From Candidatus Omnitrophota bacterium (GTDB lineage Bacteria > Omnitrophota > Gorgyraeia > Aquiviventales > Aquiviventaceae): 64,000 nt of DNA. The notes beneath the pieces are model-generated. The model ran no database searches, was not told the origin of the DNA, and saw nothing but the letters and a program-made list of their open reading frames with translations. Position numbers and translations under genes: made by a program. Each line of letters begins with the position of its first letter. Position 1 is the first letter of the stretch. The stretch is from contig JACPTX010000054.1 of the NCBI GenBank assembly GCA_016192545.1, forward strand, positions 4,421 to 68,420. The letters are read 5' to 3'. Shown in pieces: positions 3,654 to 63,152 of this stretch.

Positions 3654-8128
<4,475 letters not shown>

Positions 8129-26377: not shown

Positions 26378-26451
26378 GCGCCCGTAGCTCACTTGGATAG
26401 AGCGCTTGGCTTCGAACCAAGAGGCAGCAGGTTCGATTCCTGCCGGGCGCA
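26378..26451 (+). tRNA. tRNA-Arg (anticodon TCG)
   Basis: Acceptor GCGCCCG/CGGGCGC, anticodon stem CTTGG/CCAAG with loop CTTCGAA, T-arm GCAGG-TTCGATT-CCTGC. Confidence 0.9.
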
Positions 26452-26589
26452 CTTTTCTGAGTAGGCAGGAATCGAGGGGAGGCCCGACTTCGGTTGATCA
26501 GCGTCGGCGCGACGAATAGGAGCGCCGACATACCTTAGGAGGGCCGGGTGGCCGACCCGGAGCCCCGCCGATAGCGGGGCGGAGGGCGC

Positions 26590-26606
26590 CGATTCCTGCC
26601 GGGCGC
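26590..26606 (+). repeat. 17-nt direct repeat of the tRNA-Arg(TCG) 3' end
   Basis: CGATTCCTGCCGGGCGC occurs at 26434-26450 (inside the tRNA) and again at 26590-26606. An inverted copy, GGCAGGAATCG, lies at 26464-26474. Confidence 0.8.
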
Positions 26607-26627
26607 GTTCTTCTGCGGATGTGTCGC

Positions 26628-26700
26628 GGGCCGTTAGCTCAACTGGTAGAGCAGGGGACTCTTAATCCCAAGGTCGAAGGTTCGATCCCTTCACGGCCCA
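26628..26700 (+). tRNA. tRNA-Lys (anticodon CTT)
   Basis: Acceptor GGGCCGT/ACGGCCC, anticodon loop CTCTTAA, T-arm GAAGG-TTCGATC-CCTTC. Confidence 0.9.
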
Positions 26701-26717
26701 TCGTTTGATCCCAGCAA

Positions 26718-26798
26718 GGGCGGGTGGCGGAATGGCAGACGCGACGGCCTTAGGAGCCGTTGGGGAAACCCGTAGAGGTTCAAATCCTCTCTCGCCCA
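26718..26798 (+). tRNA. tRNA-Leu (anticodon TAG), class II with long variable arm
   Basis: Acceptor GGGCGGG/CTCGCCC, anticodon stem ACGGC/GCCGT with loop CTTAGGA, variable arm GGGGAAACCC, T-arm AGAGG-TTCAAAT-CCTCT. Confidence 0.85.
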
Positions 26799-26816
26799 CG
26801 ACGGTGTGTGATCGAC

Positions 26817-26888
26817 GCGGGAGTAGCTCAGGGGTAGAGCGTCACGTTGCCAACGTGAATGTCGCGGGTTCAAATCCCGTCTCCCGCT
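26817..26888 (+). tRNA. tRNA-Gly (anticodon GCC)
   Basis: Acceptor GCGGGAG/CTCCCGC, anticodon loop TTGCCAA, T-arm GCGGG-TTCAAAT-CCCGT. Confidence 0.9.
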
Positions 26889-43349: not shown

Positions 43350-43440
43350 GGGGTGGCTGAGGCTAACCATCTGTAAGGGTGGGGCGCAAAGCTACGGGCC
43401 CTTGACATCTAAGATGTCAAGGACAGCCGAGCTGCCAAAA
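43350..43440 (+). promoter_or_regulatory. c-di-GMP-I (GEMM-I) riboswitch-like element
   Basis: Segment-by-segment match to the Vc2 aptamer as I recall it:
- GGCTAACC versus GGCAAACC.
- CCATCT-GTAA-GGGTGG, a GNRA-capped helix, versus CCAUUC-GAAA-GAGUGG.
- GGCGCAAAGC versus GACGCAAAGC.
- A long helix, CCTTGACATCT-A-AGATGTCAAGG.
- ACAGCCGAGCTGCC closing strand.
The element ends 10 nt before ATG 43446. Confidence 0.65.
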
Positions 43441-43445
43441 CGGAC

Positions 43446-43733
43446 ATGGCCAATACCGTAGACCATAATTCATCCTCTCCGCAGAATCACGCCCGGGCGC
43501 ACCGGGTCATCGCCTCCCTCAACCGCGAACAGGTCGATGTCCTTGATAAGATCGGCAAGGACGCGCTGTTCTCCTCAGGCACCAAGCTCTCCCGCACCGA
43601 AATCCTCTCCGCCCTGGTGAACGTCCTGCGGCGGTTGAACCTCACCGGGGAAGGGATTCAGAGCCCGGCGCAGTTTGAGCAGCGGGTGGTGGATCTGGTC
43701 ATCAAGGCACGAGGAGGCAAACATCATGCCTAG
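43446..43733 (+). CDS. hypothetical 95-aa protein, first gene after the riboswitch (possible ribbon-helix-helix-like fold)
   Basis: ORF with no recognisable family. Its 3' end overlaps the pilT start by 8 nt. The RHH suggestion rests only on the LSRTEILSALVNVLRRL helix pattern. Confidence 0.45.
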   Translation: MANTVDHNSSSPQNHARAHRVIASLNREQVDVLDKIGKDALFSSGTKLSRTEILSALVNVLRRLNLTGEGIQSPAQFEQRVVDLVIKARGGKHHA

Positions 43734-44808
43734 CGCCACAGGGAAACAGACCGTCGAACAGCTCTTGCGGCTCGTGGTGGAGCAGGGGGCGAACGACCTC
43801 CACCTGACCGCCAACCAGCCGCCGCACATGCGCGTCAGCGACAAGCTCATCCCCATGGACCATCACGCAACCTTGAGCGGAGACGACGTGCGGGAACTCG
43901 CCTACAGCCTGTTGTCCCAGGAGAAGATCGAGCGGTTTGAGCGGTGGAAGGAGCTCGACTTCGCCTTCTCGGTCGAGGGCGTGGCGCGGTTCCGGGCGAA
44001 CTACTTCATCCAGCAGGGCCACGTGGGCGCCGCCATCCGGATGCTGCCGTTTAGGATCTACGGCTTTGAGGAGCTGGGGCTGCCGGTTCAGGTGGTGACC
44101 GATATGTGCAACAAGACCAAGGGGCTGGTGCTCGTGACCGGGGCGACCGGCTCCGGCAAAACGACCACCCTGGCCGCGATGGTCGACTTCATCAACGCCG
44201 CGCGCAACTTCCACATCATTACGGTGGAGGACCCCATCGAGTACGTCCACGACTGCAAGAAGTCGATCGTCGATCAGCGGGAGGTCGGGGCGGACACGCA
44301 ATCCTTCGCGCAGGCTCTCAAGCATGTGCTGCGGCAGGACCCCGACGTCATCCTGATCGGCGAGATGCGCGACCTGGAAACGATTGAGACCGCCCTGACA
44401 GTGGCCGAAACCGGCCACCTGGTCTTCGCCACCCTGCACACGTCGGATGCGGCCTCCACGATCAACCGGATCGTGGACGTGTTCCCGGCGCATCAGCAGA
44501 ACCAGGTCCGCATCCAGCTGTCCATGGAACTGCTGGGCGTGATCGCCCAGCAGCTGATCCCGAAGGCCAGCGGCAAGGGCCGCGTGCTGGCGGCGGAAGT
44601 CCTCCTGGCCAATCACGCGGTGCGCTCCCTCATCCGGGAGCAGAAGACCCATCAGCTGTATTCCGTGATCCAGACCGGCCAGAAAGACGGCATGAAGACG
44701 ATGAACCAGTCGCTCTACGAGCTCTACCTCAAGCAGGCGATTGCGCTGGATGACGCGCTGGCGCGGTCCGGCGATCCCGACGATTTGATGCGGCTCGTGA
44801 AGCGGTAG
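43726..44808 (+). CDS. pilT: type IV pilus retraction ATPase
   Basis: ATG 43726 lies 8 nt after GAGGAGG. Walker A GATGSGKTT, and the Asp box and His box are typical of PilT; about 360 aa. Confidence 0.9.
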   Translation: MPSATGKQTVEQLLRLVVEQGANDLHLTANQPPHMRVSDKLIPMDHHATLSGDDVRELAYSLLSQEKIERFERWKELDFAFSVEGVARFRANYFIQQGHVGAAIRMLPFRIYGFEELGLPVQVVTDMCNKTKGLVLVTGATGSGKTTTLAAMVDFINAARNFHIITVEDPIEYVHDCKKSIVDQREVGADTQSFAQALKHVLRQDPDVILIGEMRDLETIETALTVAETGHLVFATLHTSDAASTINRIVDVFPAHQQNQVRIQLSMELLGVIAQQLIPKASGKGRVLAAEVLLANHAVRSLIREQKTHQLYSVIQTGQKDGMKTMNQSLYELYLKQAIALDDALARSGDPDDLMRLVKR

Positions 44809-44839: not shown

Positions 44840-45331
44840 GTGGTGCAGATGGCGCGGCGCATCATCACGAAGCGGATCGGGGACATCCTCCTGGAGCGCG
44901 GGGTCATCACCCCCAAGCAGCTCGAGGGCGCCCTGCAGCGCCAACAAGAGCGCGGCGGGCTCTTGGGCCAGGCGCTCATCGACCTCGGGCATGTCACCGA
45001 GGAGGAAGTGGCCCTCGCCCTGACCGCCCAGTACGGCTTTCCGTATCTGCCGCTTGACAACTATGAGATTGACCGCGACGTGACCCAACTGGTCCCCGAA
45101 CATGTCGCGCGGCAGTACTGCCTGATCCCCATCGACCGGATCGGCAACGCCTTGACGGTCGCCATGGCCGACCCATCCAACTCCCAGGCGATCGAAGACA
45201 TCGAGATTCTCACCAACTGCGTGATTCAGACGTTCGTCAGCACGCCCTCCCATATCCAAAAAGCCATCAACCGCTGCTACAAGCACGAGACGGACGCCGC
45301 ACCCACCCCGCCAACCTCCAACACGTCGTAG
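44840..45331 (+). CDS. stand-alone MshEN / T2SSE_N domain protein, predicted c-di-GMP receptor
   Basis: RIGDILLERGVITPKQLEGALQRQ, a 5-residue spacer (QERGG), then LLGQALIDLGHVTEEEVALALTAQ. Together these fit the published tandem 24-residue MshEN motif, RLGxx(L/V/I)(L/V/I)xxG(L/V/I)(L/V/I)xxxxLxxxLxxQ. There is no ATPase domain. The start could be GTG 44840 or ATG 44849. Confidence 0.7.
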   Translation: MVQMARRIITKRIGDILLERGVITPKQLEGALQRQQERGGLLGQALIDLGHVTEEEVALALTAQYGFPYLPLDNYEIDRDVTQLVPEHVARQYCLIPIDRIGNALTVAMADPSNSQAIEDIEILTNCVIQTFVSTPSHIQKAINRCYKHETDAAPTPPTSNTS

Positions 45332-45341
45332 GACCGCCGCC

Positions 45342-47066
45342 ATGTCGAGCCTCAAGGAGCGTCTCATTGAGGTCCTCGTGTCCAACCGCCTGCTCACGCC
45401 GGAGCAGCTCGAAGACGCGCTGAGGATTCAGCAGCGTCAAGGCGGCAGCCTCCAGAAGATCCTCATCGACCATCGGTTCGTGGACGAGCAGCATCTCCTG
45501 GCCGCCGTCAGCCAGGGCCTGGGGGTTCCGCCGATCAGCCTGGGGCGCCTCAAGATCGACCCCGCGTTGAAGACCAAGGTCCCCCGCGAGGTCGCCAAGC
45601 AGCACCAGATTGTGCCGATTGCCTGCATGGGCAACACCCTCACCATCGCCATGGCGGATCCCTTGAACATCTTCGCGCTCGACACGCTCACGACGATGAC
45701 CGGCCTGACCATCAATCCGCTGCTGGCCTCGGCGCAGGACATCCAGGAGACGATCGATCTCTACTACGGAACCGGGATCGAAGAAACGCTGCAGGAAATC
45801 GCCAAGGGCAGCGGCGGGGCGGTGGAGGTGCTGCGGGCGGAAGCGCCGCAGGAGGAGACCGACGTCAACCGCCTCATGCAGCTCACCCAGGAGGCCCCGG
45901 TCGTCCGGATGACCGACGCGCTCCTGGCGAAGTCCGTGTCGCTCCACGCCTCCGACCTCCTCATCGAGCCGATGGAGAGGGCCGTCCGCATCCGCTATCG
46001 GGTGGACGGCGTGCTCCAGGAGGGCGAGGCGCCCCCCCGGCAGATGCAGCAGGCGGTCGTGTCCCGCATCAAGATCATGGCCGAGCTGAACATTGCGGAG
46101 CACCGGCTGCCGCAGGACGGCCACTTCGCCTTCCGGGCGGAGGGGCGGATGATCGACGTCCGCGTCTCGGTCCTGCCGACGAACTTCGGCGAGAAAATCG
46201 TCCTGCGGGTGCTGGATAAAGGGCAGATCCATCTCAATATCGATGACCTGGGGTTCTCCCCGGAAGATTTGAAAACCATCAAGCGATGCGCGGAACGTCC
46301 GCACGGCATGATCCTGTCGACCGGCCCGACCGGGTCGGGGAAGACGACGACGATGTACGCGCTCTTAAAGGCCATCGACAGCCCGGAGAAAAACATCGTG
46401 ACGGTGGAGGATCCTGTGGAATTCCAGCTTGAGGGCATCAACCAGGTCAATGCCCGGGCGGAGATCGGGCTGACCTTCGCCAAGGCCCTCCGGGCGATCC
46501 TCCGCCAGGACCCCGACGTCATCATGGTGGGGGAAATCCGCGATGCGGAAACCGCGGACATGGCCGTGAAATCCGCGTTGACCGGGCACCTGGTCTTGAG
46601 CACGCTCCATACGAACAGCGCCGCCGGCAGCATCGTGCGGCTCGTGAACATGGGGATCGAGCCGTTTCTCCTCAACTCCTGCCTCATGGCGGCGATCGGC
46701 CAGCGGCTGGTCCGGAAAATCTGCCCCCAGTGCAAAGAAACCTACCGGCCGCCGAAAGGGCTGGCGCAGAAAGCCGGTCTCCTGGGGCCGGATGGGCAGA
46801 GTCCGTCGCTGGCCAGGGGCACGGGGTGTTCCTCCTGTCTGCAGTCCGGGTATCGGGGGCGGGACGTGATTGCGGAAGTCATCGCCCTGACGCCGGACAT
46901 TCGCAGCCTGATTCTCCGGCGCGCCCAGGAACGCGAGGTGGAGGAGGCGGCCCGCAAAGCCGGGATGCGGACCCTGCGCGAGCACGGCCTGCTCAAGGCC
47001 ACGGCGCACGTCACGACGCTCGATGAGGTGTTCCGGACGACGATCGGGGAGGTGGTGGAGGGATGA
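45342..47066 (+). CDS. pilB: type IV pilus / T2SS assembly ATPase (GspE/PilB family), copy 1
   Basis: 574 aa with an N-terminal MshEN-like domain (degenerate motif), Walker A GPTGSGKTT and a C-terminal tetracysteine motif (CPQC...CSSC). Confidence 0.9.
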   Translation: MSSLKERLIEVLVSNRLLTPEQLEDALRIQQRQGGSLQKILIDHRFVDEQHLLAAVSQGLGVPPISLGRLKIDPALKTKVPREVAKQHQIVPIACMGNTLTIAMADPLNIFALDTLTTMTGLTINPLLASAQDIQETIDLYYGTGIEETLQEIAKGSGGAVEVLRAEAPQEETDVNRLMQLTQEAPVVRMTDALLAKSVSLHASDLLIEPMERAVRIRYRVDGVLQEGEAPPRQMQQAVVSRIKIMAELNIAEHRLPQDGHFAFRAEGRMIDVRVSVLPTNFGEKIVLRVLDKGQIHLNIDDLGFSPEDLKTIKRCAERPHGMILSTGPTGSGKTTTMYALLKAIDSPEKNIVTVEDPVEFQLEGINQVNARAEIGLTFAKALRAILRQDPDVIMVGEIRDAETADMAVKSALTGHLVLSTLHTNSAAGSIVRLVNMGIEPFLLNSCLMAAIGQRLVRKICPQCKETYRPPKGLAQKAGLLGPDGQSPSLARGTGCSSCLQSGYRGRDVIAEVIALTPDIRSLILRRAQEREVEEAARKAGMRTLREHGLLKATAHVTTLDEVFRTTIGEVVEG

Positions 47067-47175
47067 CCCTTCGACGCGGCCTTCGGCCTTGTGGTTCGAC
47101 GGGCTCACCATCCCTCGAACCATCCCGAGCGAGGTCGAGGGACTCAGGGTCATGGTGAGCGGAGTCGAACCATGA
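47063..47175 (+). repeat. family A palindromic intercistronic element, 109-bp long variant bounded by ATGA
   Basis: ATGA at 47063 (pilB copy 1 stop) and at 47172 (pilB copy 2 start). The ends match the short units. The interior carries an inverted copy of the right arm: GGTTCGAC...CTCACCAT against ATGGTGAG...GTCGAACC. Confidence 0.85.
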
Positions 47176-48872
47176 GCTTCAAGGATCGCCTGTCGAAGGC
47201 GCTGGTCGCCAAGGGGCTGCTGAAGGAAGAGCAGCTCGGCCAGCTGGCCCGTGAAGCGGGTGCGGCGAAGAAGAGCCTGGCGCAGGTGGTGATCGAGCGG
47301 GGTCTGGTCACGGAGACCGCGCTCGTCGGGCTCCTCGCGGAAGAGCTGGGCATCCCCACGCTGTCCCTGTCGAAATACCGGATCGATCCGGCGGTGGCCC
47401 GCATCATCCCGGAACGGATCGCCCGGCAATACACCCTGATCCCGATCACCAAATTCGGAGAACGCCTGGTCGTGGCGATGGCGGATCCGATGAACATCTT
47501 CGCGCTCGATGATCTCAAGGTGCTGACCCGCTATGCGGTGGATCCGGTGCTGGCGAAGGACGCGGACATCCGGCGCGCGATTGAGCAGGCCTACGGCCAG
47601 CCCTCCAACCTCGCGATCGCGCTCTCCGGCGACAACGGCGAGTCCGCCTCCGTGACGGAGACCGACACCCTGGACAGCACGGTCCAGCTCATGTTGTCCG
47701 AGGAAGCCGGCGATGCCCCGGTCGTCAAAGCCATCAACCTGATGATTGTGGAAGCGCTCCGCAACCGCGCCTCGGACATCCATCTGGAGCCGGTGGAGCA
47801 GGGGCTGCGCATCCGCTACCGGATCGACGGGCGCCTGCGGGAAGCGCATCGCCTGCCGAAGGCGATCCAGAGCACCGTGTTGACGCGGCTGAAGATTCTC
47901 TCAGGGCTCGACATCACGGAGTGGCGGCTGCCGCAGGATGGGCGGTTCAAAGTCCGGCTGGACGCGCGCGAGGTGGACTTCCGGGTGTCGGTGCTGCCGA
48001 TCACCCATGGCGGCAAGGTCGTGCTGCGGGTGCTGGATCAGAGCAACCTGTCCATCGGGTTGGACCACCTGGGATTCCTGCCGGAGTCGATCGAGCGGTT
48101 CAAGGAGGCCGTCAGCCGGCCCCACGGCATGATCCTGGTGACCGGCCCGACCGGCTCCGGGAAGTCCACGACGCTCTACTCGATCCTCAACCAGCTCAAC
48201 AACCCGACCCGCAACATCACGACCATCGAGGATCCGGTGGAATACCAGCTGGCGGGCATCACCCAGGTGCAGGTGAATCCCGACATCGGCCTGACGTTCG
48301 CGGCCGGGCTGCGGGCCCTGCTGCGCCAGAGCCCTGATGTGGTGATGGTCGGCGAGATCCGGGACTTTGAAACGGCTGACATCGCCATGAAAGCCAGTCT
48401 GACCGGCCAACTCGTGCTGTCCACCCTGCATACGAACGACGCGCCCTCGGCGGTCTCGCGGCTGGTGGACATGGGGGTGGAGCCGTTCCTGGTGGCCTCG
48501 AGCGCCACGCTCATCGAGGCCCAGCGGCTGGTCCGCAAGCTGTGTCCGAACTGCCGCAAGCCCGCCGAGCCGCCCAAGGATCTGCTGAAACGCTTGAACT
48601 GCTCCCCGGGGAAGGAGGCGACGTTCTTCCGGGCGGAGGGGTGTCACCTGTGCAACCGCAGCGGCTATCGGGGCCGGATGGGCATCATCGAGGTCTTGAT
48701 GGTTGATGAGCATGTGAGGGAGCTGATCGTGGGGAAGGCCCAGTCCTGGGAAATCAAGGACTATGCGGTCACGCGCCTGGGGATGACCCCGTTGCGCGAA
48801 GACGGCCTGAGGAAGGCGGCGATGGGATTGACGACGCTGGAAGAGGTCCTGCAGGTGACGTCGGAGGAGTAA
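47172..48872 (+). CDS. pilB: type IV pilus / T2SS assembly ATPase (GspE/PilB family), copy 2
   Basis: 566 aa from ATG 47172, with Walker A GPTGSGKST and CPNC...CHLC. The ORF-track start at 47091 lies inside the repeat. Confidence 0.9.
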   Translation: MSFKDRLSKALVAKGLLKEEQLGQLAREAGAAKKSLAQVVIERGLVTETALVGLLAEELGIPTLSLSKYRIDPAVARIIPERIARQYTLIPITKFGERLVVAMADPMNIFALDDLKVLTRYAVDPVLAKDADIRRAIEQAYGQPSNLAIALSGDNGESASVTETDTLDSTVQLMLSEEAGDAPVVKAINLMIVEALRNRASDIHLEPVEQGLRIRYRIDGRLREAHRLPKAIQSTVLTRLKILSGLDITEWRLPQDGRFKVRLDAREVDFRVSVLPITHGGKVVLRVLDQSNLSIGLDHLGFLPESIERFKEAVSRPHGMILVTGPTGSGKSTTLYSILNQLNNPTRNITTIEDPVEYQLAGITQVQVNPDIGLTFAAGLRALLRQSPDVVMVGEIRDFETADIAMKASLTGQLVLSTLHTNDAPSAVSRLVDMGVEPFLVASSATLIEAQRLVRKLCPNCRKPAEPPKDLLKRLNCSPGKEATFFRAEGCHLCNRSGYRGRMGIIEVLMVDEHVRELIVGKAQSWEIKDYAVTRLGMTPLREDGLRKAAMGLTTLEEVLQVTSEE

Positions 48873-50123: not shown

Positions 50124-50346
50124 AACTCACGAGAAAGCCACACCTCCGCCACCATGCGTGGCGGATCCGCCGATGCATGTTGGCGGACGTCGAAAGGCGG
50201 GGCCGGAAAGCCACAGGCCCAAGAATGTGCAGGCAGTTGACCGTGTTCCCGGCACGGGGCGACTGACCAGCAGGGCAGCTGGGTTGCCGCATGAGGACAA
50301 CGAGCGATGGAGTGGGAGCCATTGTCCGCGCGGCAGTGGCTTTTTT
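50124..50346 (+). ncRNA. candidate structured leader / riboswitch-like attenuator, or an independent ~220-nt sRNA, upstream of the major pilin; class unknown
   Basis: Six consecutive hairpins:
- Twin TCCGCC/GGCGGA stems at 50145-50165 and 50166-50187.
- A GAAA-capped stem at 50188-50199.
- 50200-50220.
- 50234-50265.
- 50267-50282.
An antiterminator follows (50286-50290 and 50295-50300 pairing with 50322-50327 and 50330-50334). It is mutually exclusive with the terminator stem at 50318-50340. Confidence 0.5.
50318..50346 (+). terminator. intrinsic terminator inside the pilin leader
   Basis: GCCATTGTC (50318-50326) pairs with GGCAGTGGC (50332-40), with a 5-nt loop. TTTTTT follows at 50341-50346. 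Confidence 0.7.
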
Positions 50347-50477: not shown

Positions 50478-51035
50478 ATGAGTCCATTCAAACGACAGGC
50501 TCGAGCAGGGTTCACCCTGATCGAGATCATGATCGTCGTGGCGATCATCGCGCTCCTGGCGGCGGTGGCGATCCCGAACGTGCTCCGCGGCCGGACCAGC
50601 GCGAATGAATCCGCGGCGATCAGCAACATGCGGGCCCTGATGAGCTCGCTGGAGATGTACCGGTCGGTCAACAACGTGTATCCGGATGACTTCGACGATG
50701 ACATGTATGGAGCCGGCGGGGACTGTGATGCTGGCGTCGCGCCGGATCCGGACTACGGTCCGCCATCGTTCTGTCTGGACCTGATCGCCGGGGACGACGT
50801 GCAGGGGTTCGACTACATCTACACCAACCTGCCGGCCGCCTGTGACAATACCGCGGGATCGGAGTGTGTGCAGTTTACGTTGACGGCCGATCCGGTCGAT
50901 GCGGGGAGAACCGGCACCCGATCCTTCTATGTGGACGAGTCCGGGACCATCCGACACTGCACGGCGGATGCGGATGACGACTTGGCGACGGTCGCCGACG
51001 AGACATTGGACGATCCGCCTGCGGACTGTGCGTAA
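50478..51035 (+). CDS. pilA: type IV (pseudo)pilin, probable major pilin
   Basis: Prepilin leader MSPFKRQARAG followed by FTLIEIMIVVAIIALLAAVAIPN. The C-terminal domain is very acidic and has six Cys. Confidence 0.85.
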   Translation: MSPFKRQARAGFTLIEIMIVVAIIALLAAVAIPNVLRGRTSANESAAISNMRALMSSLEMYRSVNNVYPDDFDDDMYGAGGDCDAGVAPDPDYGPPSFCLDLIAGDDVQGFDYIYTNLPAACDNTAGSECVQFTLTADPVDAGRTGTRSFYVDESGTIRHCTADADDDLATVADETLDDPPADCA

Positions 51036-51065
51036 TCGGATCGTGTGAATCGGTTAACTGACGTG

Positions 51066-51109
51066 CATGAAAGCGGCCCCATGTCCGGGAACGCGGGGCC
51101 GCTTTCATG
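51066..51109 (+). terminator. 15-bp perfect hairpin between the two pilin paralogues (attenuator/terminator candidate)
   Basis: CATGAAAGCGGCCCC (51066-51080) and GGGGCCGCTTTCATG (51095-51109). The loop contains ATG 51081. Confidence 0.5.
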
Positions 51110-51560
51110 TTTCCGACACGGGTTCACGTTTCTTGAGATTCTGGTCGTGGTGACGATCCTGAGTCTCCTGGCGCTGCTCGGGCTGGTCAACGTGGTGCGA
51201 GCGCGGCTGGTGGGCAACGAGACCGTCACGATTGCGAACCTCCGGGAATTATCGGTGGCCCTGCGGGCCTATCACAGTGTCAACAACACGTACCCGGATC
51301 CGCTGGGACTGCTGAGTGATGTGACGCCGCCCTATGTGTATCCGGAGCTGACCGGCGGCAGCGGCGCCAACGGGAATGCGGATCTGGCCGGCTATGCGTA
51401 TGACTACGTCTGGGAAGGCCTCGACGATTACGCGCTGATCACCAGGCCGGTGACCGAGAGGGTGACCGGCGTCAGGCGGTTTTGGGTGGACGAGACGAGT
51501 GCGATTCGGTATACCGTGGATGGGACTGACCCAACCGTCAACAGCCCGCTGATTCAATGA
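51081..51560 (+). CDS. type IV pilin paralogue
   Basis: The prepilin motif is GFTFLEILVVVTILSLLALL. It shares YHSVNNTYPD and RRFWVDETSAIRY with pilA (YRSVNNVYPD, RSFYVDESGTIRH). The start is ATG 51081, or GTG 51045 from the ORF track. Confidence 0.8.
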   Translation: MSGNAGPLSCFRHGFTFLEILVVVTILSLLALLGLVNVVRARLVGNETVTIANLRELSVALRAYHSVNNTYPDPLGLLSDVTPPYVYPELTGGSGANGNADLAGYAYDYVWEGLDDYALITRPVTERVTGVRRFWVDETSAIRYTVDGTDPTVNSPLIQ

Positions 51561-52072
51561 ACCGACACGGGTTGACGCTGATCGAGCTGATGGTTTGCGT
51601 GACGCTGTTGGTGGTCGGCATCACGGCGCTCCTGGGGGCCTTCCTCAGCCAGATGGCGCTCAACGAGCATGCCCGGAACATGGCCTGGGCGATGAACGAC
51701 GCCAACCGCGTGATGGAGCGGATGCGCCAGCTGAACGTCAATTGCGACACGCCCTCCGCGGCGGCGCCGTCGGAATGCGGCGACGGGAATGATGCGTGCG
51801 CTGACTGGAACGATTGGCTGGCGGACACCGCAGAAGGGAAAAGCATCGAGCCCGACCCGGACACCTACGAGTTGATTACCATGACGAGCACCGGCACCGA
51901 TCCCCTCCAGGTCACCGTGGCCGTCTGCTGGCGCCACAAGAGCCGCGTGATCGGCGAATGCACGTGGGACGCCGGGACCGAAACCTTTGATACCGATGAC
52001 GTCGATGGAGACGGCATCATCGAATCGCCGGCGATGCTGTCCACCCTGATGACGTGCCGTTCGGAGTCTTGA
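51557..52072 (+). CDS. prepilin-type N-terminal cleavage/methylation domain protein (minor pilin)
   Basis: MNRHGLTLIELMVCVTLLVVG. The start overlaps the previous stop (ATGA). Confidence 0.8.
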   Translation: MNRHGLTLIELMVCVTLLVVGITALLGAFLSQMALNEHARNMAWAMNDANRVMERMRQLNVNCDTPSAAAPSECGDGNDACADWNDWLADTAEGKSIEPDPDTYELITMTSTGTDPLQVTVAVCWRHKSRVIGECTWDAGTETFDTDDVDGDGIIESPAMLSTLMTCRSES

Positions 52073-52073
52073 G

Positions 52074-52697
52074 ATGACCACAGTCCCGGTGTCAGGCACC
52101 TCGCGTGCGCTCGGAGCCAGACACCGGTCAGCGGGGTTTACGCTCATCGAGGTGATGATCGTCCTGACGATCCTGCTCGGCGTGTTCGGGGCGGTCTTAA
52201 TCAGCTTCTTGGTGGGGCGCCGCTCCCATGTGGCCGGCGACGCGTATGTGCAGGTCCAGCAGGAGGCCCGCCGGGCGGTGGATGAGATGATCAAAGAGCT
52301 TCGGGGATCCACCACCGATCGGCTGTTCCTGGTGGGCACTGACACGGTCGTCTTCCAGGTTCCGAACGACAACGATGACGACGGCAGCGTCACGACCGGA
52401 GGGGCCCTGGAATGGGGCGCGCCGGGGGTGGCGGACGGCTGCATCCAGTACGCCTTCACCGGAGGCCAAATCCAGCGGACGCTGCTGGCCGGGCCGTTTG
52501 ATTCCGAGGCGCAGACCTGCGGCGACGCGGCCGCCGGGGAGCCGGTCTGGACCGTCGGCAACCACGTTGAGGACGTGACGTTCACCGCCACCACCGGCGG
52601 CATGCGCATCTCCGTGACGACGCAGATGACCGAACAGCTAGCCGGGGACGGGCAGAGCGCGACGATCACCGGCCGCGCCCAATACCGAAACCTCTGA
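52074..52697 (+). CDS. prepilin-type N-terminal cleavage/methylation domain protein (minor pilin)
   Basis: The prepilin motif is SAGFTLIEVMIVLTILLGVFG. Confidence 0.8.
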   Translation: MTTVPVSGTSRALGARHRSAGFTLIEVMIVLTILLGVFGAVLISFLVGRRSHVAGDAYVQVQQEARRAVDEMIKELRGSTTDRLFLVGTDTVVFQVPNDNDDDGSVTTGGALEWGAPGVADGCIQYAFTGGQIQRTLLAGPFDSEAQTCGDAAAGEPVWTVGNHVEDVTFTATTGGMRISVTTQMTEQLAGDGQSATITGRAQYRNL

Positions 52698-53750
52698 ATG
52701 AACCTAACGTCTGTGACGCTGCCTCCCGCCCTGCAATCCGTCGTGGCGACTCTCAAGCGTTTCGCGGTCATCCAGCGGAGAGAGCCGAAGTGCACCATCG
52801 GGCTGGACCTGGGCACCTCGTCGCTCAAAGTGGTGGCCCTCGGCCCGCGCAAGGCGTCCGGGATGCGTCCGCTGCTGGCGCAGCGAGCGGTGCTGGTGCC
52901 TGACGCGGCGGATGACGAGCGCCTCATCGGCCTGCTCAGAGACACCATGAGCAGCCTGCAGCTGCCCGTCAACGCCGTCACCTTGTCCATCAGCGGCCAA
53001 TGGGTCATCATGCGGGTCGTGGAGATGCCGACGTTGGACCCGGAGGAGCTGGCGCGCGCGCTGCCCTTTGAGGCCCAGCGGCATGTGCCGTTCAATATCC
53101 AAGACGTGGTGCTCGATGGCGCGACGCTGGGTCCGGCGGAAGGCGGAAAGATCTGGGTCCTGATTGTCGCCGGCAAGCGCGAGATGCTCGACCGGCGGAT
53201 TGCGGTGGCGAAGCGCGCCGGGCTGGAGCCGGAGGCGGTCGACGTCGACGCGGTGGCCTTGGCGAACGCGTTCCTGGCCCAGTTCAACGGACAGCCGGCC
53301 GTCGGCACCCAGGCCCTGCTCAACCTCGGCGCGCAATGGACCAACCTGGTCATCCTCAAGGATCGCATCCCGTATCTGGTCCGGGACGTGCCCTGGGGGG
53401 CGGGCCGGCTGCTGCATCAGGCCGCAGAGCAGCTCGGGGTCGATGAGGCGTCGGTGACGGCGCAAGTGTCGCAGGGCAAGCCGGCGACGCCTGAGCTGCT
53501 CGCGGCCTTGAAGGCCGGCTGCGAATCGGTGACGGCGGATCTCCAGTTGTCGTTCGATTTTTTTGAGAGCCGGTTCGGGACCCCGCCGGACCGGATTCTG
53601 GTCAGCGGCGGGCTCAGCCAGTCGTCGAGCGTCTTGGACGCCCTCAAAAGCCATCTCGCGCAGCCCCTCCACATGTGGGCGCCTCGCGAGGGGTTGACGG
53701 GCCAGTTCGCCGTGGCCTATGGGTTGGCGCTTCGGACCATCGGCGCGTAA
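52698..53750 (+). CDS. pilM: type IV pilus assembly protein PilM (actin-like ATPase fold)
   Basis: GLDLGTSSLKVVAL phosphate-1 motif, 350 aa, positioned before pilN. Confidence 0.85.
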   Translation: MNLTSVTLPPALQSVVATLKRFAVIQRREPKCTIGLDLGTSSLKVVALGPRKASGMRPLLAQRAVLVPDAADDERLIGLLRDTMSSLQLPVNAVTLSISGQWVIMRVVEMPTLDPEELARALPFEAQRHVPFNIQDVVLDGATLGPAEGGKIWVLIVAGKREMLDRRIAVAKRAGLEPEAVDVDAVALANAFLAQFNGQPAVGTQALLNLGAQWTNLVILKDRIPYLVRDVPWGAGRLLHQAAEQLGVDEASVTAQVSQGKPATPELLAALKAGCESVTADLQLSFDFFESRFGTPPDRILVSGGLSQSSSVLDALKSHLAQPLHMWAPREGLTGQFAVAYGLALRTIGA

Positions 53751-53756
53751 CGTGCC

Positions 53757-54362
53757 ATGATCACGATTAACCTGCTCCCGGAGTCGGCTCGCAAGGTGCG
53801 CACGGTCTCGCTCCATGACCTGCCGCGCTCACCCCTGGCGCTGGTCATCGGCGGCGCCCTGATCGGACTCTGGCTCGTCCTGGCGGCCGCCAAGGGCCTG
53901 TATCAGACGCGCCTGGGCCAATTGAAGACCCGCATGCAGCAGCTCCAACCCACGCAGGGGGAGGCAGAGGCCTTGCGCGCCTCGGTCGACACGCTGCGGA
54001 CGCAGCAGCAACTCTACCAGCGGATCAGTCAGGCGCGCAGCCAGTGGGCGCGGTCGTTGAACGCGCTGTCCGACGTCGTGCCGGACGGCCTGTGGCTGCG
54101 CGAGCTGGTCATCGAGCCCAAAGAGAAGGTGGAGTTCAAGGGATCCATCGTGGCGCAGGGCGGGGAAGAGATGGTCCGGCTGAGGCGGTTGGTCCAGGAC
54201 CTGAAGTCCGATCCCCGCTTTCTGATGCCGGGATGGGATCTGCAGATTGACTCGATCAAAAGCGTGCCGGACGGCCAAATCGAAGTCCTGGAATTCGCCA
54301 TGACCTACAACCCGGCCCAGCGCCAGCCGGCACGCAAGCCGTCCACCAAGAAGAAACGATGA
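53757..54362 (+). CDS. pilN: type IV pilus assembly protein PilN
   Basis: MITINLLPE start, single TM, coiled coil. Confidence 0.8.
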   Translation: MITINLLPESARKVRTVSLHDLPRSPLALVIGGALIGLWLVLAAAKGLYQTRLGQLKTRMQQLQPTQGEAEALRASVDTLRTQQQLYQRISQARSQWARSLNALSDVVPDGLWLRELVIEPKEKVEFKGSIVAQGGEEMVRLRRLVQDLKSDPRFLMPGWDLQIDSIKSVPDGQIEVLEFAMTYNPAQRQPARKPSTKKKR

Positions 54363-55048
54363 GCCCGCGGCCGGCCATCTCGCTGAAGACGAAGCGCCAG
54401 CAGGTCCTCGCGGGCGTTTTTCTGGTTGTGGCGGTCGGCGCGTGGGTGTATTATGCGTACGCGTTGACGCCGCTGATGCGGACGGTGGGGCGCTTAGCGA
54501 AGGATGTCTCAGCTGCGAGCAAGCAACTGAAAGCCATCGAGACCTCGGTCGCCCAGGAGCCTCAGTTGCGTCAGGAGCACGCCCGTCTCACCCAGGCCAT
54601 CGACGCGCTCCAGACCGCCGTTCCGCGTGAAGAGGATCTGCCCGCCGTCATCCAGCGTCTCTCGGAAGTCGCCCACCAGACCGGCGTGAAGATTCAGACC
54701 ATCCACCCGCAGCGCTCCCTGGAGAGCGTCAGCGATGACGATCTCGCGTTCCTTCCGCCCGCACCCAAGCCTCCGGCAGGCAAGGCCAAGACGAAACCGG
54801 CGGCGGCTCCCGGGCTCCTGCCGTACCGGGGGATTCCCATCCAAATCGACGCCCAGGCCGGATTCCATCAGGCGGGGGCTTTCGTCAGCCAGATGGAAGG
54901 CGGGGATCAGGCGATGCGGCTCACACAGGTTCGGATCAGCGCGAACAGCAAGGACCTGCGGCGGCACCAAGTCCGCATCACCATGCTGGGGTATTTCATG
55001 ACCCCCCCGGAGGCCGATGCGCCGCGGACCGGGGCCCCGGGTTCCTGA
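54359..55048 (+). CDS. pilO: type IV pilus assembly protein PilO
   Basis: Single TM plus coiled coil plus a ferredoxin-like C-terminus, in the conserved gene order. Confidence 0.7.
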   Translation: MSPRPAISLKTKRQQVLAGVFLVVAVGAWVYYAYALTPLMRTVGRLAKDVSAASKQLKAIETSVAQEPQLRQEHARLTQAIDALQTAVPREEDLPAVIQRLSEVAHQTGVKIQTIHPQRSLESVSDDDLAFLPPAPKPPAGKAKTKPAAAPGLLPYRGIPIQIDAQAGFHQAGAFVSQMEGGDQAMRLTQVRISANSKDLRRHQVRITMLGYFMTPPEADAPRTGAPGS

Positions 55049-61323: not shown

Positions 61324-61395
61324 GGGCCGGTAGCTCAGTGGCAGAGCAGGTGGCTCATAACCACTTGGTCGGACGTTCGATCCGTCCCCGGCCCA
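61324..61395 (+). tRNA. tRNA-Met (anticodon CAT), elongator-like
   Basis: Acceptor GGGCCGG/CCGGCCC, anticodon loop CTCATAA. It lacks the initiator GGG/CCC anticodon stem, and Ile2 (lysidine) identity cannot be excluded. Confidence 0.85.
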
Positions 61396-61413
61396 CTCTT
61401 GCGGACGGATCAG

Positions 61414-61487
61414 GGGCGGTTAGCTCAGCCGGTTAGAGCGCTACCCTCACATGGTAGAGGTCACAGGTTCGAGCCCTGTACCGCCCA
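61414..61487 (+). tRNA. tRNA-Val (anticodon CAC)
   Basis: Acceptor GGGCGGT/ACCGCCC, anticodon stem CTACC/GGTAG with loop CTCACAT. Confidence 0.9.
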
Positions 61488-62718: not shown

Positions 62719-63152
62719 GGAACCGAAGAGCAGCCTGATGGCCGCCTCGCCCTGTTCGGCAGGGGGCGGGGAGGAAAGTCCGAGCTCCGAAGGGCAGCGT
62801 ACCCTGTGAAACACAGGGCCCCCCAGGCCTTCCTGCCCCCAGACTGGGGGAAGGCAGGAATGGGGGAGGATCAGAGCCACAGAGACGAGTATCCCCGAGT
62901 CTTCCTGTCCCCCGTTCGCGGGGAAGACAGGATCGGGGGGACGTGAAACGCGGCAATCTCTACGTGGAGCAAGGCCAAACACCCTACGTTTCAGGTTGCC
63001 CGCCTGACCCCCATCGTTTTGCTTCGGTTTGCGAAGCAAAACGAAGCAATGGGGGCGTAGGAAGGTGGGCCGCAAGAGTCCCGTCGCAAGACGCGACCCA
63101 GATGGATGGCCATCCTCGACAGAACTCGGCTTACCGGCTGCTTTTCGGTTCC
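62719..63152 (+). ncRNA. rnpB: RNase P RNA, bacterial type A
   Basis: P1 pairing is GGAACCGAAGAGCAGCC with GGCTGCTTTTCGGTTCC. Conserved GGAGGAAAGTCCGAGCTCC, GGAGCAAGGCCAAA and ACAGAACTCGGCTTACCGG are present. It is longer than the E. coli RNA because of extra hairpins. Confidence 0.9.

Follow-up and report, generated by a model that had tools for sequence, protein, structure and literature searches.

Is the sensor for cyclic di-GMP (c-di-GMP) that governs a type IV pilus motor necessarily part of the motor polypeptide, or can it be supplied by a gene of its own? This question is raised by a 64,000-nucleotide (nt) stretch of contig JACPTX010000054.1, from a metagenome-assembled genome (MAG) of a Candidatus Omnitrophota bacterium. 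In this stretch, termed the window in the following, a small gene ahead of two tandem pilB genes encodes a stand-alone MshEN domain. MshEN is one of only three widespread families of c-di-GMP protein receptors, together with PilZ and ComFB, and nearly all work on it concerns domains that are fused to their effector. Most Omnitrophota have not been cultured, and pili presumably matter to the cell-contact lifestyle of the phylum. The original prediction, made for this gene from the window sequence, held that c-di-GMP sensing has been outsourced to a separate subunit that acts in trans. The domain itself, its signature, a pattern repeated in 83 loci and the constraint acting on the protein support this proposal in part, while we infer the binding of c-di-GMP and the action in trans. 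The reading favoured here, at a probability of roughly 0.55, is that the 160-amino acid (aa) protein would serve as a trans-acting c-di-GMP receptor, i.e. a detachable sensing module of the PilB extension motor.

The stand-alone MshEN domain and its predicted nucleotide site

The gene, its signature and the two adjoining motor genes are arranged as follows:

44849..45331, + strand: stand-alone MshEN gene, 160 aa (163 aa from an alternative GTG at 44840); an MshEN_N four-helix subdomain with the 53-residue c-di-GMP site is followed by MshEN_C (T2SSE_N1) and a short low-complexity tail
44873..45031, + strand: 53-residue c-di-GMP-binding signature, composed of motif 1, a 5-residue spacer and motif 2
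45342..47066, + strand: pilB1; TIGR02538 615.5 bits, PF00437 447.5, PF05157 78.3, NF053729 44.7
47172..48872, + strand: pilB2; TIGR02538 649.8 bits, PF00437 453.8, PF05157 76.9, NF053729 19.6

The open reading frame (ORF) had been proposed to span 44840..45331 with 163 aa. The ORF is real, but its true start is probably the ATG at 44849, 9 nt downstream of the first-reported GTG, because the homologues and the deposited record begin there: all aligned homologues open with 'MA[RK]R', matching this ATG, and the record (MBI3088401.1, 160 aa, 'hypothetical protein', Candidatus Omnitrophica bacterium) uses it as the start. A Pfam search of the protein yields a single domain, MshEN (PF05157, 79.2 bits with a cut-off of 23.1, aa 65-151), and no match to the T2SSE ATPase (PF00437). 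The PilB equivalog model TIGR02538 scores 83 bits, with a cut-off of 676, and covers profile positions 2-142 only. The stand-alone protein is not a PilB, and the label 'PilB' that is given to some orthologues by the Joint Genome Institute (JGI) is a misnomer, since the T2SSE ATPase is missing. The current PF05157 model spans only the C-terminal subdomain, and the nucleotide site was found with the NCBIfam model NF053729 ('c-di-GMP_motif', 53 positions), which is matched over profile positions 1-53 with 63.8 bits and an E-value of 9e-18, far beyond chance (cut-off 38). The description of the product as an MshEN domain devoid of an ATPase is therefore borne out by the ORF and by both matches, and the profile search that had been proposed as a check places PF05157 and NF053729 above their cut-offs.

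The signature consists of RIGDILLERGVITPKQLEGALQRQ, the spacer QERGG and LLGQALIDLGHVTEEEVALALTAQ, and occupies aa 12-64 of the 163-aa form, equivalent to 9-61 of the 160-aa form. These letters are exactly those given in the original prediction for two 24-residue motifs with exactly five residues between them. The motif consensus is RLGxx(L/V/I)(L/V/I)xxG(L/V/I)(L/V/I)xxxxLxxxLxxQ, and an extended form admits R, K or L at position 1. Motif 1 fits all key positions with the sole deviation of I for L at position 2, and motif 2 has L instead of R at position 1 and also deviates at positions 11 (H) and 17 (V). The L at motif 2 position 1 is allowed by the extended consensus, which is based on the GSPII-B domain of PilF, a domain for which c-di-GMP binding at 6 nM is reported despite the lack of arginines (PMC11731258). 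The 160-aa form aligns with Vibrio cholerae MshE over residues 6-114 without gaps and consequently shares its numbering. Accordingly numbered, the key residues are R9, I10, G11, G18, L25, L29, Q32, L38, L39, G40, G47, V54, L58, Q61 and D108, and a basic N-terminal patch is retained (R/K3, R/K4, K8). The effect of some of these residues has been measured elsewhere: in the V. cholerae MshEN domain, G11L abolishes c-di-GMP binding and G40I lowers it 72-fold, changes of R9 in MshE cost less than 5-fold, and in XpsE binding is lost through G11V, G40L, Q61V and other changes (PMC5013675).

An AlphaFold2 model based on alignment A2, which contains 50 sequences including distant stand-alone relatives, reaches a predicted local distance difference test (pLDDT) score of 91.2 and a predicted template modelling (pTM) score of 0.79. 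It places four helices ahead of a three-stranded sheet flanked by helices, the alpha/beta C-subdomain. For three distant stand-alone representatives (P0167, P0152 and P0233), the genomic context is confined to contigs of 1-2 kb, and the sequence of P0233 runs off the end of its contig. A first model, derived from a shallow alignment of 70%-identical sequences (A1), had a pLDDT of 60 and a wrongly helical C-subdomain and was dropped for the A2 model. The top match of the A2 model in a Foldseek search of the PDB is MshE in complex with c-di-GMP (5HTL; TM-scores 0.76/0.87, root-mean-square deviation 2.0 A), and further matches include the GSPII domains of Thermus PilF and the N-domain of Xanthomonas citri PilB in complex with PilZ. 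Sequence matches in the PDB are led by PilF (2.4e-48), Geobacter PilB (5.8e-27) and MshE (5HTL, 3.5e-18). Sequence and model together support a complete MshEN domain with an intact predicted binding signature and the MshE fold.

Conservation of the free and the fused domains

Both PilB proteins of the window have intact Walker A, Asp box, His box and Cys4 motifs, and both carry an MshEN domain at the N-terminus. At the positions of G11, G18, Q32, G40, G47 and Q61, PilB1 presents I, R, Q, Q, R and G and PilB2 presents S, G, A, A, G and E. At position 8, the K of the free domain is replaced by E in PilB1 and D in PilB2. On NF053729, the free domain scores 63.8 bits, PilB1 lies above the cut-off of 38 with 44.7 bits and PilB2 lies below it with 19.6 bits. 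The residues at G11, G40 and Q61 agree with the earlier statement that both PilB N-termini have lost several Gly and Gln positions, with the addition that PilB1 is only half degenerate.

A protein search identified more than 2,200 relatives, and the best 120 are all 150-180 aa long, 68-94% identical and almost all unnamed. If one genome per GTDB species is considered, at least 549 genomes contain a relative. The best 80 are nearly all Omnitrophota or bins labelled 'uncultured Planctomycetales/Planctomycetia', which we take to be mislabelled. These best 80 of at least 549, two long metagenomic contigs and the window constitute the 83 loci that were compared. The order free MshEN-pilB-pilB-pilC is found in all 83 wherever the contig permits, with pilT upstream in many. 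The three MshEN copies of each locus were aligned to one profile (free domain, n=83; first PilB, n=81; second PilB, n=70), with the following occupancy:

G11: free 83/83; first PilB 0/81; second PilB 0/70
G40: free 83/83; first PilB 15/81; second PilB 14/70
Q61: free 83/83; first PilB 1/81; second PilB 8/70
Position 8: free K in 83/83; first PilB E/D in 73/81; second PilB mixed (E 18, D 18, Q 16, K 9)
Signature G11/Q32/G40/Q61/D108: free 5/5 in 53 and 4/5 in 30; at most 3/5 in all 151 PilBs

Q32 and Q61 are both present in 82/83 free domains. The combination of an intact free domain with degenerate fused domains is thus not peculiar to the genome of the window, as it is found in all 83 Omnitrophota loci examined.

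The degree of conservation differs in the same direction. In the N-subdomain, pairwise identity averages 61% among the free domains, as opposed to 45% among the first and 33% among the second PilBs, and in MshEN_C/T2SSE_N1 the mean is 65% for the free domain versus 52-54% in the PilBs. The mean distance is 0.35 among free domains, 0.37-0.41 among the ATPase cores and 0.50 and 0.55 among the PilB N-domains. These values support a much stronger constraint on the free domain than on the fused ones, at a level of conservation that is about that of the ATPase cores. Residues in contact with the ligand do not change in the free copy, whereas both fused copies of the same genomes have drifted at these sites, which is the pattern expected if only the free copy binds. 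The free domain is 35-37% identical to the N-domains of PilB1 and PilB2 of the same genome, and the three paralogous domains are approximately equidistant from each other and from the PilB N-domains of Geobacter and Myxococcus. An origin by recent duplication is ruled out by this identity and by the equal distances. The three domains are old paralogues and their split is old, whichever of fission and duplication preceded the other, since they are about as distant from each other as from other phyla.

The comparative data also bear on the idea that the gene is a fragment or artefact, i.e. what is left of a truncated third pilB, or the N-terminal part of pilB1 that a frameshift has detached. The name 'PilB' carried by some orthologues and one contig in which both parts are fused would suit this idea. 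However, the same ORF of 145-170 aa with a stop codon is found in 83/83 loci from different species and samples, with relatives in the at least 549 genomes mentioned above. It is more conserved than the PilB N-domains, PilB1 has a complete MshEN domain of its own, and in the window the free gene and pilB1 lie in different reading frames. A pseudogene or frameshift is thereby effectively refuted.

The pilus motor as candidate partner

In the favoured reading, c-di-GMP would bind the free MshEN domain at the canonical two-motif site, and both PilB ATPases would keep an MshEN-shaped N-domain as a scaffold without the residues that keep the nucleotide in place. The gene of the free domain precedes pilB1 by a few bases in a riboswitch-led operon, and its product would associate with the PilB hexamer or hexamers in a manner analogous to the extra GSPII domains of Thermus PilF, which act in cis. 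The level of c-di-GMP would then be coupled to pilus extension, e.g. if PilB is stabilised or allowed to dock on the PilM/PilC platform. Here, we infer ligand binding, the contact with PilB rather than with PilM, PilC or PilT, and the direction of the effect.

The choice of PilB as the partner is suggested by gene order. The free MshEN gene lies directly upstream of the first pilB in 81/83 loci, the other two being cut by contig ends, and the distance from its stop codon to the start of the longest pilB1 ORF has a median of 6 nt (81 loci), so that the two genes abut or overlap. An exhaustive profile search additionally revealed many PilBs with two to seven MshEN copies. In one case, a free-MshEN-like first domain is joined to a PilB1-like remainder by a Gly/Asn/Lys-rich linker (P0124, 765 aa, L083 8001..10298) in a locus with the order [fusion]-PilB2-PilC; as a single sequence on one contig, this fusion is suggestive rather than firm. 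The original prediction had named PilB and/or PilT as the target. The adjacency in 81/83 loci and the fusion narrow this to PilB, while pilT adjoins the free gene in only 53 of the 76 loci with enough upstream sequence.

Several points weigh against a sensing subunit of PilB. The GSPII-A domain of PilF fails to bind c-di-GMP even if its consensus motif is restored (PMC12002112), so that an intact motif is necessary but not sufficient. Position 9, the first stacking residue, is variable among the free domains (Q 31, R 26, T 15, K 9, V 2), and D108 is replaced by N in 29/83 of them. PilB1 retains R9, L10, L25, L29, Q32, L39, L54 and L58, with both Leu triads intact, and passes the NF053729 cut-off; with a domain that is half degenerate, it may possess residual or altered binding. 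The PilB fusion has been seen once, on a single JGI metagenomic contig, and may stem from an assembly error or a lost stop codon. Mirror-tree comparisons gave raw correlations of 0.85-0.93, which reflect shared phylogeny, and partial correlations of 0.00-0.37 without a significance test, the highest with parts of PilB and 0.00 with PilT; this signal is small and only a weak pointer away from PilT.

Some of these points could be accommodated if the free protein were a structural paralogue without nucleotide binding, i.e. an accessory scaffold of the motor in which the motif is kept for folding or protein contacts. The near-perfect first motif of PilF GSPII-A, which remains non-binding even after restoration (PMC12002112), and the variation of position 9 across the family argue for it. 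On the other hand, G11, Q32, G40, Q61 and K8 are ligand contacts that a helix bundle does not need, and they are invariant in the free domain and decayed in both PilBs. The N-cap motif that blocks GSPII-A, in which helix 1 has a stable N-cap extension, is likewise not present at the sequence level: the residues aligned to N'-Ncap-N1-N2-N3-N4 are R-R-I-I-T-K, and the position equivalent to the N-cap is R in 74/83 and K in 9/83 free domains rather than T, S or D, with helix dynamics lying beyond what sequence can tell. Since the locus is, moreover, embedded in c-di-GMP elements, we regard a non-binding scaffold as quite unlikely.

Regulation of retraction, with the free domain acting on PilT, would agree with the position of pilT immediately upstream in the window and in 53/76 loci. 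In the other 23/76 loci, a HAMP-GAF-GGDEF gene occupies this place, while pilB1 is the constant neighbour, and the partial correlation with PilT is 0.00. MshEN domains are not known to form part of PilT-type ATPases, and an action on PilT is considered very unlikely.

The free domain could also act on the platform. As a c-di-GMP-binding decoy or gatekeeper, it would occupy or vacate the docking site of the PilB N-domains on the inner-membrane platform (PilM/PilN/PilC), depending on the c-di-GMP level, and so bar or admit the motor, and it may also decide which PilB, or PilT, gains access. The complete and highly conserved MshEN_C/T2SSE_N1 subdomain (65% versus 52-54% in the PilBs) fits such a role: in type II secretion, this subdomain binds the PilM-like GspL, 2BH1 and 4PHT are among the Foldseek matches, pilM is present in the cluster, and the N-domain of X. 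citri PilB forms a docking surface in a model that includes PilM-PilN (PMC8389850). The PilB1 fusion and the tight coupling to pilB1 suit a subunit of the motor better than a competitor, and we consider a decoy unlikely, with the addition that a decoy and a motor subunit are not mutually exclusive.

Riboswitches, gene cluster and known counterparts

The remaining elements of the locus are:

43351..43439, + strand: GEMM-I (c-di-GMP-I class) aptamer; RF01051 58.0 bits (gathering score 35), E-value 9.7e-9
43446..43733, + strand: short conserved ORF (95 aa) that follows the first aptamer directly; unmatched in Pfam and NCBIfam
43726..44808, + strand: pilT retraction ATPase; TIGR01420 477.7 bits (cut-off 319), PF00437
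48877..50082, + strand: pilC platform protein; PF00482 T2SSF 226 bits, two repeats
50128..50292, + strand: candidate second GEMM-I-like aptamer; RF03167 35.6 bits (gathering score 59), E-value 1.3e-6 in a 701-nt search
50478..51035, 51045..51560, 51557..52072 and 52074..52697, + strand: four pilin/pseudopilin genes; PF07963 N_methyl in each
52698..53750, + strand: pilM; PF11104 PilM_2 91.6 bits
53757..54362, + strand: unassigned ORF in the pilN position
54359..55048, + strand: pilO; PF04350 42.9 bits
55482..57005, + strand: pilQ secretin; PF00263 137.6 bits

The cluster represents a complete type IVa pilus set, in which PilM is the candidate docking partner of MshEN_C-type domains. The TIGR01420 and TIGR02538 matches confirm the neighbours that had been assigned to the free gene, pilT on one side and the two pilB genes on the other. 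The gaps in the series pilT, free MshEN, pilB1, pilB2 and pilC are 40, 10, 105 and 4 nt, and a scan of the + strand from the aptamer to the start of pilB1 found no terminator-like site. Since the gaps are short and no such site intervenes, the free MshEN gene is very probably co-transcribed with the motors. The pilT gene has an ATG at 43726 with GAGGAGG 8 nt upstream, and its longest ORF begins at the TTG at 43675; the 95-aa ORF overlaps the pilT start by 8 nt. Orthologues of this small ORF occur in 25 loci with the near-invariant core HRVIASLNREQVDxLDKxGKDAxFSxGxKLSRTxIL. By eye, its strand-helix-helix pattern looks like that of a ribbon-helix-helix DNA binder, and it would be the first gene under riboswitch control. 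Tandem pilB paralogues with intact ATPase motifs are conserved phylum-wide, and their N-domains are 35-44% identical to each other. In L062, both pilB genes appear as one ORF of 1173 aa, and in L031 an extra PilB-like ORF of 968 aa precedes the free MshEN gene; either may be an effect of assembly or ORF calling.

The upstream riboswitch to which the original prediction refers was recovered with 58 bits against a gathering score of 35. This aptamer covers the complete model (1-87), ends 6 nt before the first start codon and has a fold z of -3.1. It is located in the same leader position in 9/11 related loci. No intrinsic terminator was found after it, and its position directly before the first ORF without a terminator suggests that it controls translation. 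With laxer filters, the same aptamer scores 56.5 bits on the variant model RF03167 (c-di-GMP-I-GGC), below the gathering score of 59, and this variant wins and passes its own threshold in L007, L010 and L012. At the consensus position that separates the RF01051 and RF03167 models (CGCAAAGC against CGCGAAGC), the window has the canonical A. Because the two scores are nearly equal, the subclass of the aptamer and c-di-GMP as its ligand are given here as putative. A literature search, which missed most subscription journals, found no report on the ligand of the RF03167 variant. The candidate second element, located between pilC and the pilin genes, contains large insertions and remains below the curated threshold in the window. 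The same site passes the RF01051 gathering score with 42-50 bits in 5/11 related loci (L001, L002, L003, L012 and L014), and the pilin genes may thus have a c-di-GMP switch of their own. Control by c-di-GMP at both the RNA and protein levels, as originally proposed, is plausible, and two levels are possibly an understatement given the second aptamer.

The two aptamers would also have a part in a further conceivable arrangement, in which a shared and exchangeable sensor picks the motor, PilB1 or PilB2 and possibly against PilT, that engages the platform. As c-di-GMP varies, this one diffusible sensor would make the machine change over between two modes of extension or two sets of pilins, and the proportions of sensor, motors and pilins would be governed by the two GEMM-I aptamers. 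Such a selection of motors is unlikely; if true, it would be a mechanism that has not been described for any type IV pilus.

Additional c-di-GMP elements are found at related loci. In 23/76 of them, a membrane HAMP-GAF-GGDEF gene lies directly upstream of the free MshEN gene and replaces pilT (including L022, L041, L045, L059-L063, L066, L069-L075, L077-L080 and L082), and L001 has such a gene at 5462..6904, upstream of pilT. The active-site motif of GGDEF is degenerate (GDNEF, GDNDF, GDDEF, GENIF), and the examples read have no I-site RxxD. The protein is therefore probably not an active cyclase and may serve as a receptor or scaffold. In the window, neither a GG[DE]EF signature of a diguanylate cyclase nor a homologue of the locus-associated GGDEF protein was found.

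Among known systems, the N-domain of V. cholerae MshE (5HTL; Wang et al. 2016, PMC5013675) is comparable in its two-subdomain fold, the 24+5+24 motif and the basic N-terminal patch. G11, G18, L25, L29, Q32, L39, G40, G47, L58, Q61 and D108 are common to MshE and the free domain. In contrast to MshE, the free domain is not fused to a T2SSE ATPase and has L for R at position 38, H at 48 and V at 54. PilF of Thermus thermophilus (6F8L, 8PDK, 9G1W; PMC11731258, PMC12002112) combines binding and non-binding copies on one motor with its three GSPII/MshEN domains. Its GSPII-B domain has the same 'LLG' start of motif 2 as the free domain, and the free domain followed by PilB1 reproduces the domain order of a PilB with two MshEN domains. 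However, all copies of PilF reside on one polypeptide and the outermost one is non-binding, whereas in Omnitrophota the copy predicted to bind is encoded by a gene of its own, and it is the one adjoining the ATPase that is degenerate.

Precedents for small or separate sensors are also available. [quoted passage not shown] The difference is that this system employs an EAL-domain sensor and a PilZ adaptor, both unrelated to MshEN, whereas the sensor in Omnitrophota would be a paralogue of the degenerate domain. PA3740 of Pseudomonas aeruginosa ('MshEN - xT2SSE_N1') is described as a small, ATPase-free protein with MshEN only and is listed as an experimentally tested c-di-GMP binder linked to swarming (PMC5013675 Supplementary Table 4). 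In contrast to the free domain, its C-subdomain is described as highly diverged, its distribution as beta- and gamma-proteobacterial, and it is not described as part of a pil operon beside degenerate PilBs. The same table lists no plain free MshEN in pil operons (PMC5013675 Supplementary Table 4). A literature search on stand-alone MshEN proteins, Omnitrophota pili and PA3740, with most subscription journals outside its reach, found no description of the present arrangement. YcgR and MapZ are single-domain PilZ receptors that act on motors in trans. They resemble the free domain in that a c-di-GMP domain fused to effectors elsewhere exists as a small free protein docking on a machine, and differ from it in fold, binding mode and target machines.

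The proposal extends the known logic of FimX-PilZ and the multi-domain PilF rather than introducing a new principle, and the proposed split of sensor from motor offers a testable case. This locus is one of hundreds that suggest a phylum-wide arrangement with a separate sensing copy and motors that carry a degenerate one. If confirmed, this would provide a natural split system for studying how nucleotide binding by the N-domain reaches the PilB hexamer, a step that is still called poorly understood in reviews (PMC11656802). It would, in the same case, serve as a first handle on pilus regulation in Omnitrophota and yield two rules for annotation: a 'hypothetical' 150-aa MshEN protein beside pilB is a probable c-di-GMP receptor, and PilBs without G11/G40 should not be counted as receptors.

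Some minor observations were made alongside. In L087 (4444..6615), a protein of 723 aa combines a free-MshEN-like domain with PilZ, a membrane segment and DUF7305 near a secretin gene; it would thereby carry c-di-GMP receptor domains of two different kinds. Housekeeping RNAs of the window comprise a class A RNase P RNA (62726..63149, 161.7 bits) and ten tRNA genes at 727-892, 2174-2248, 26378-26888 (a cluster of five) and 61324-61487.

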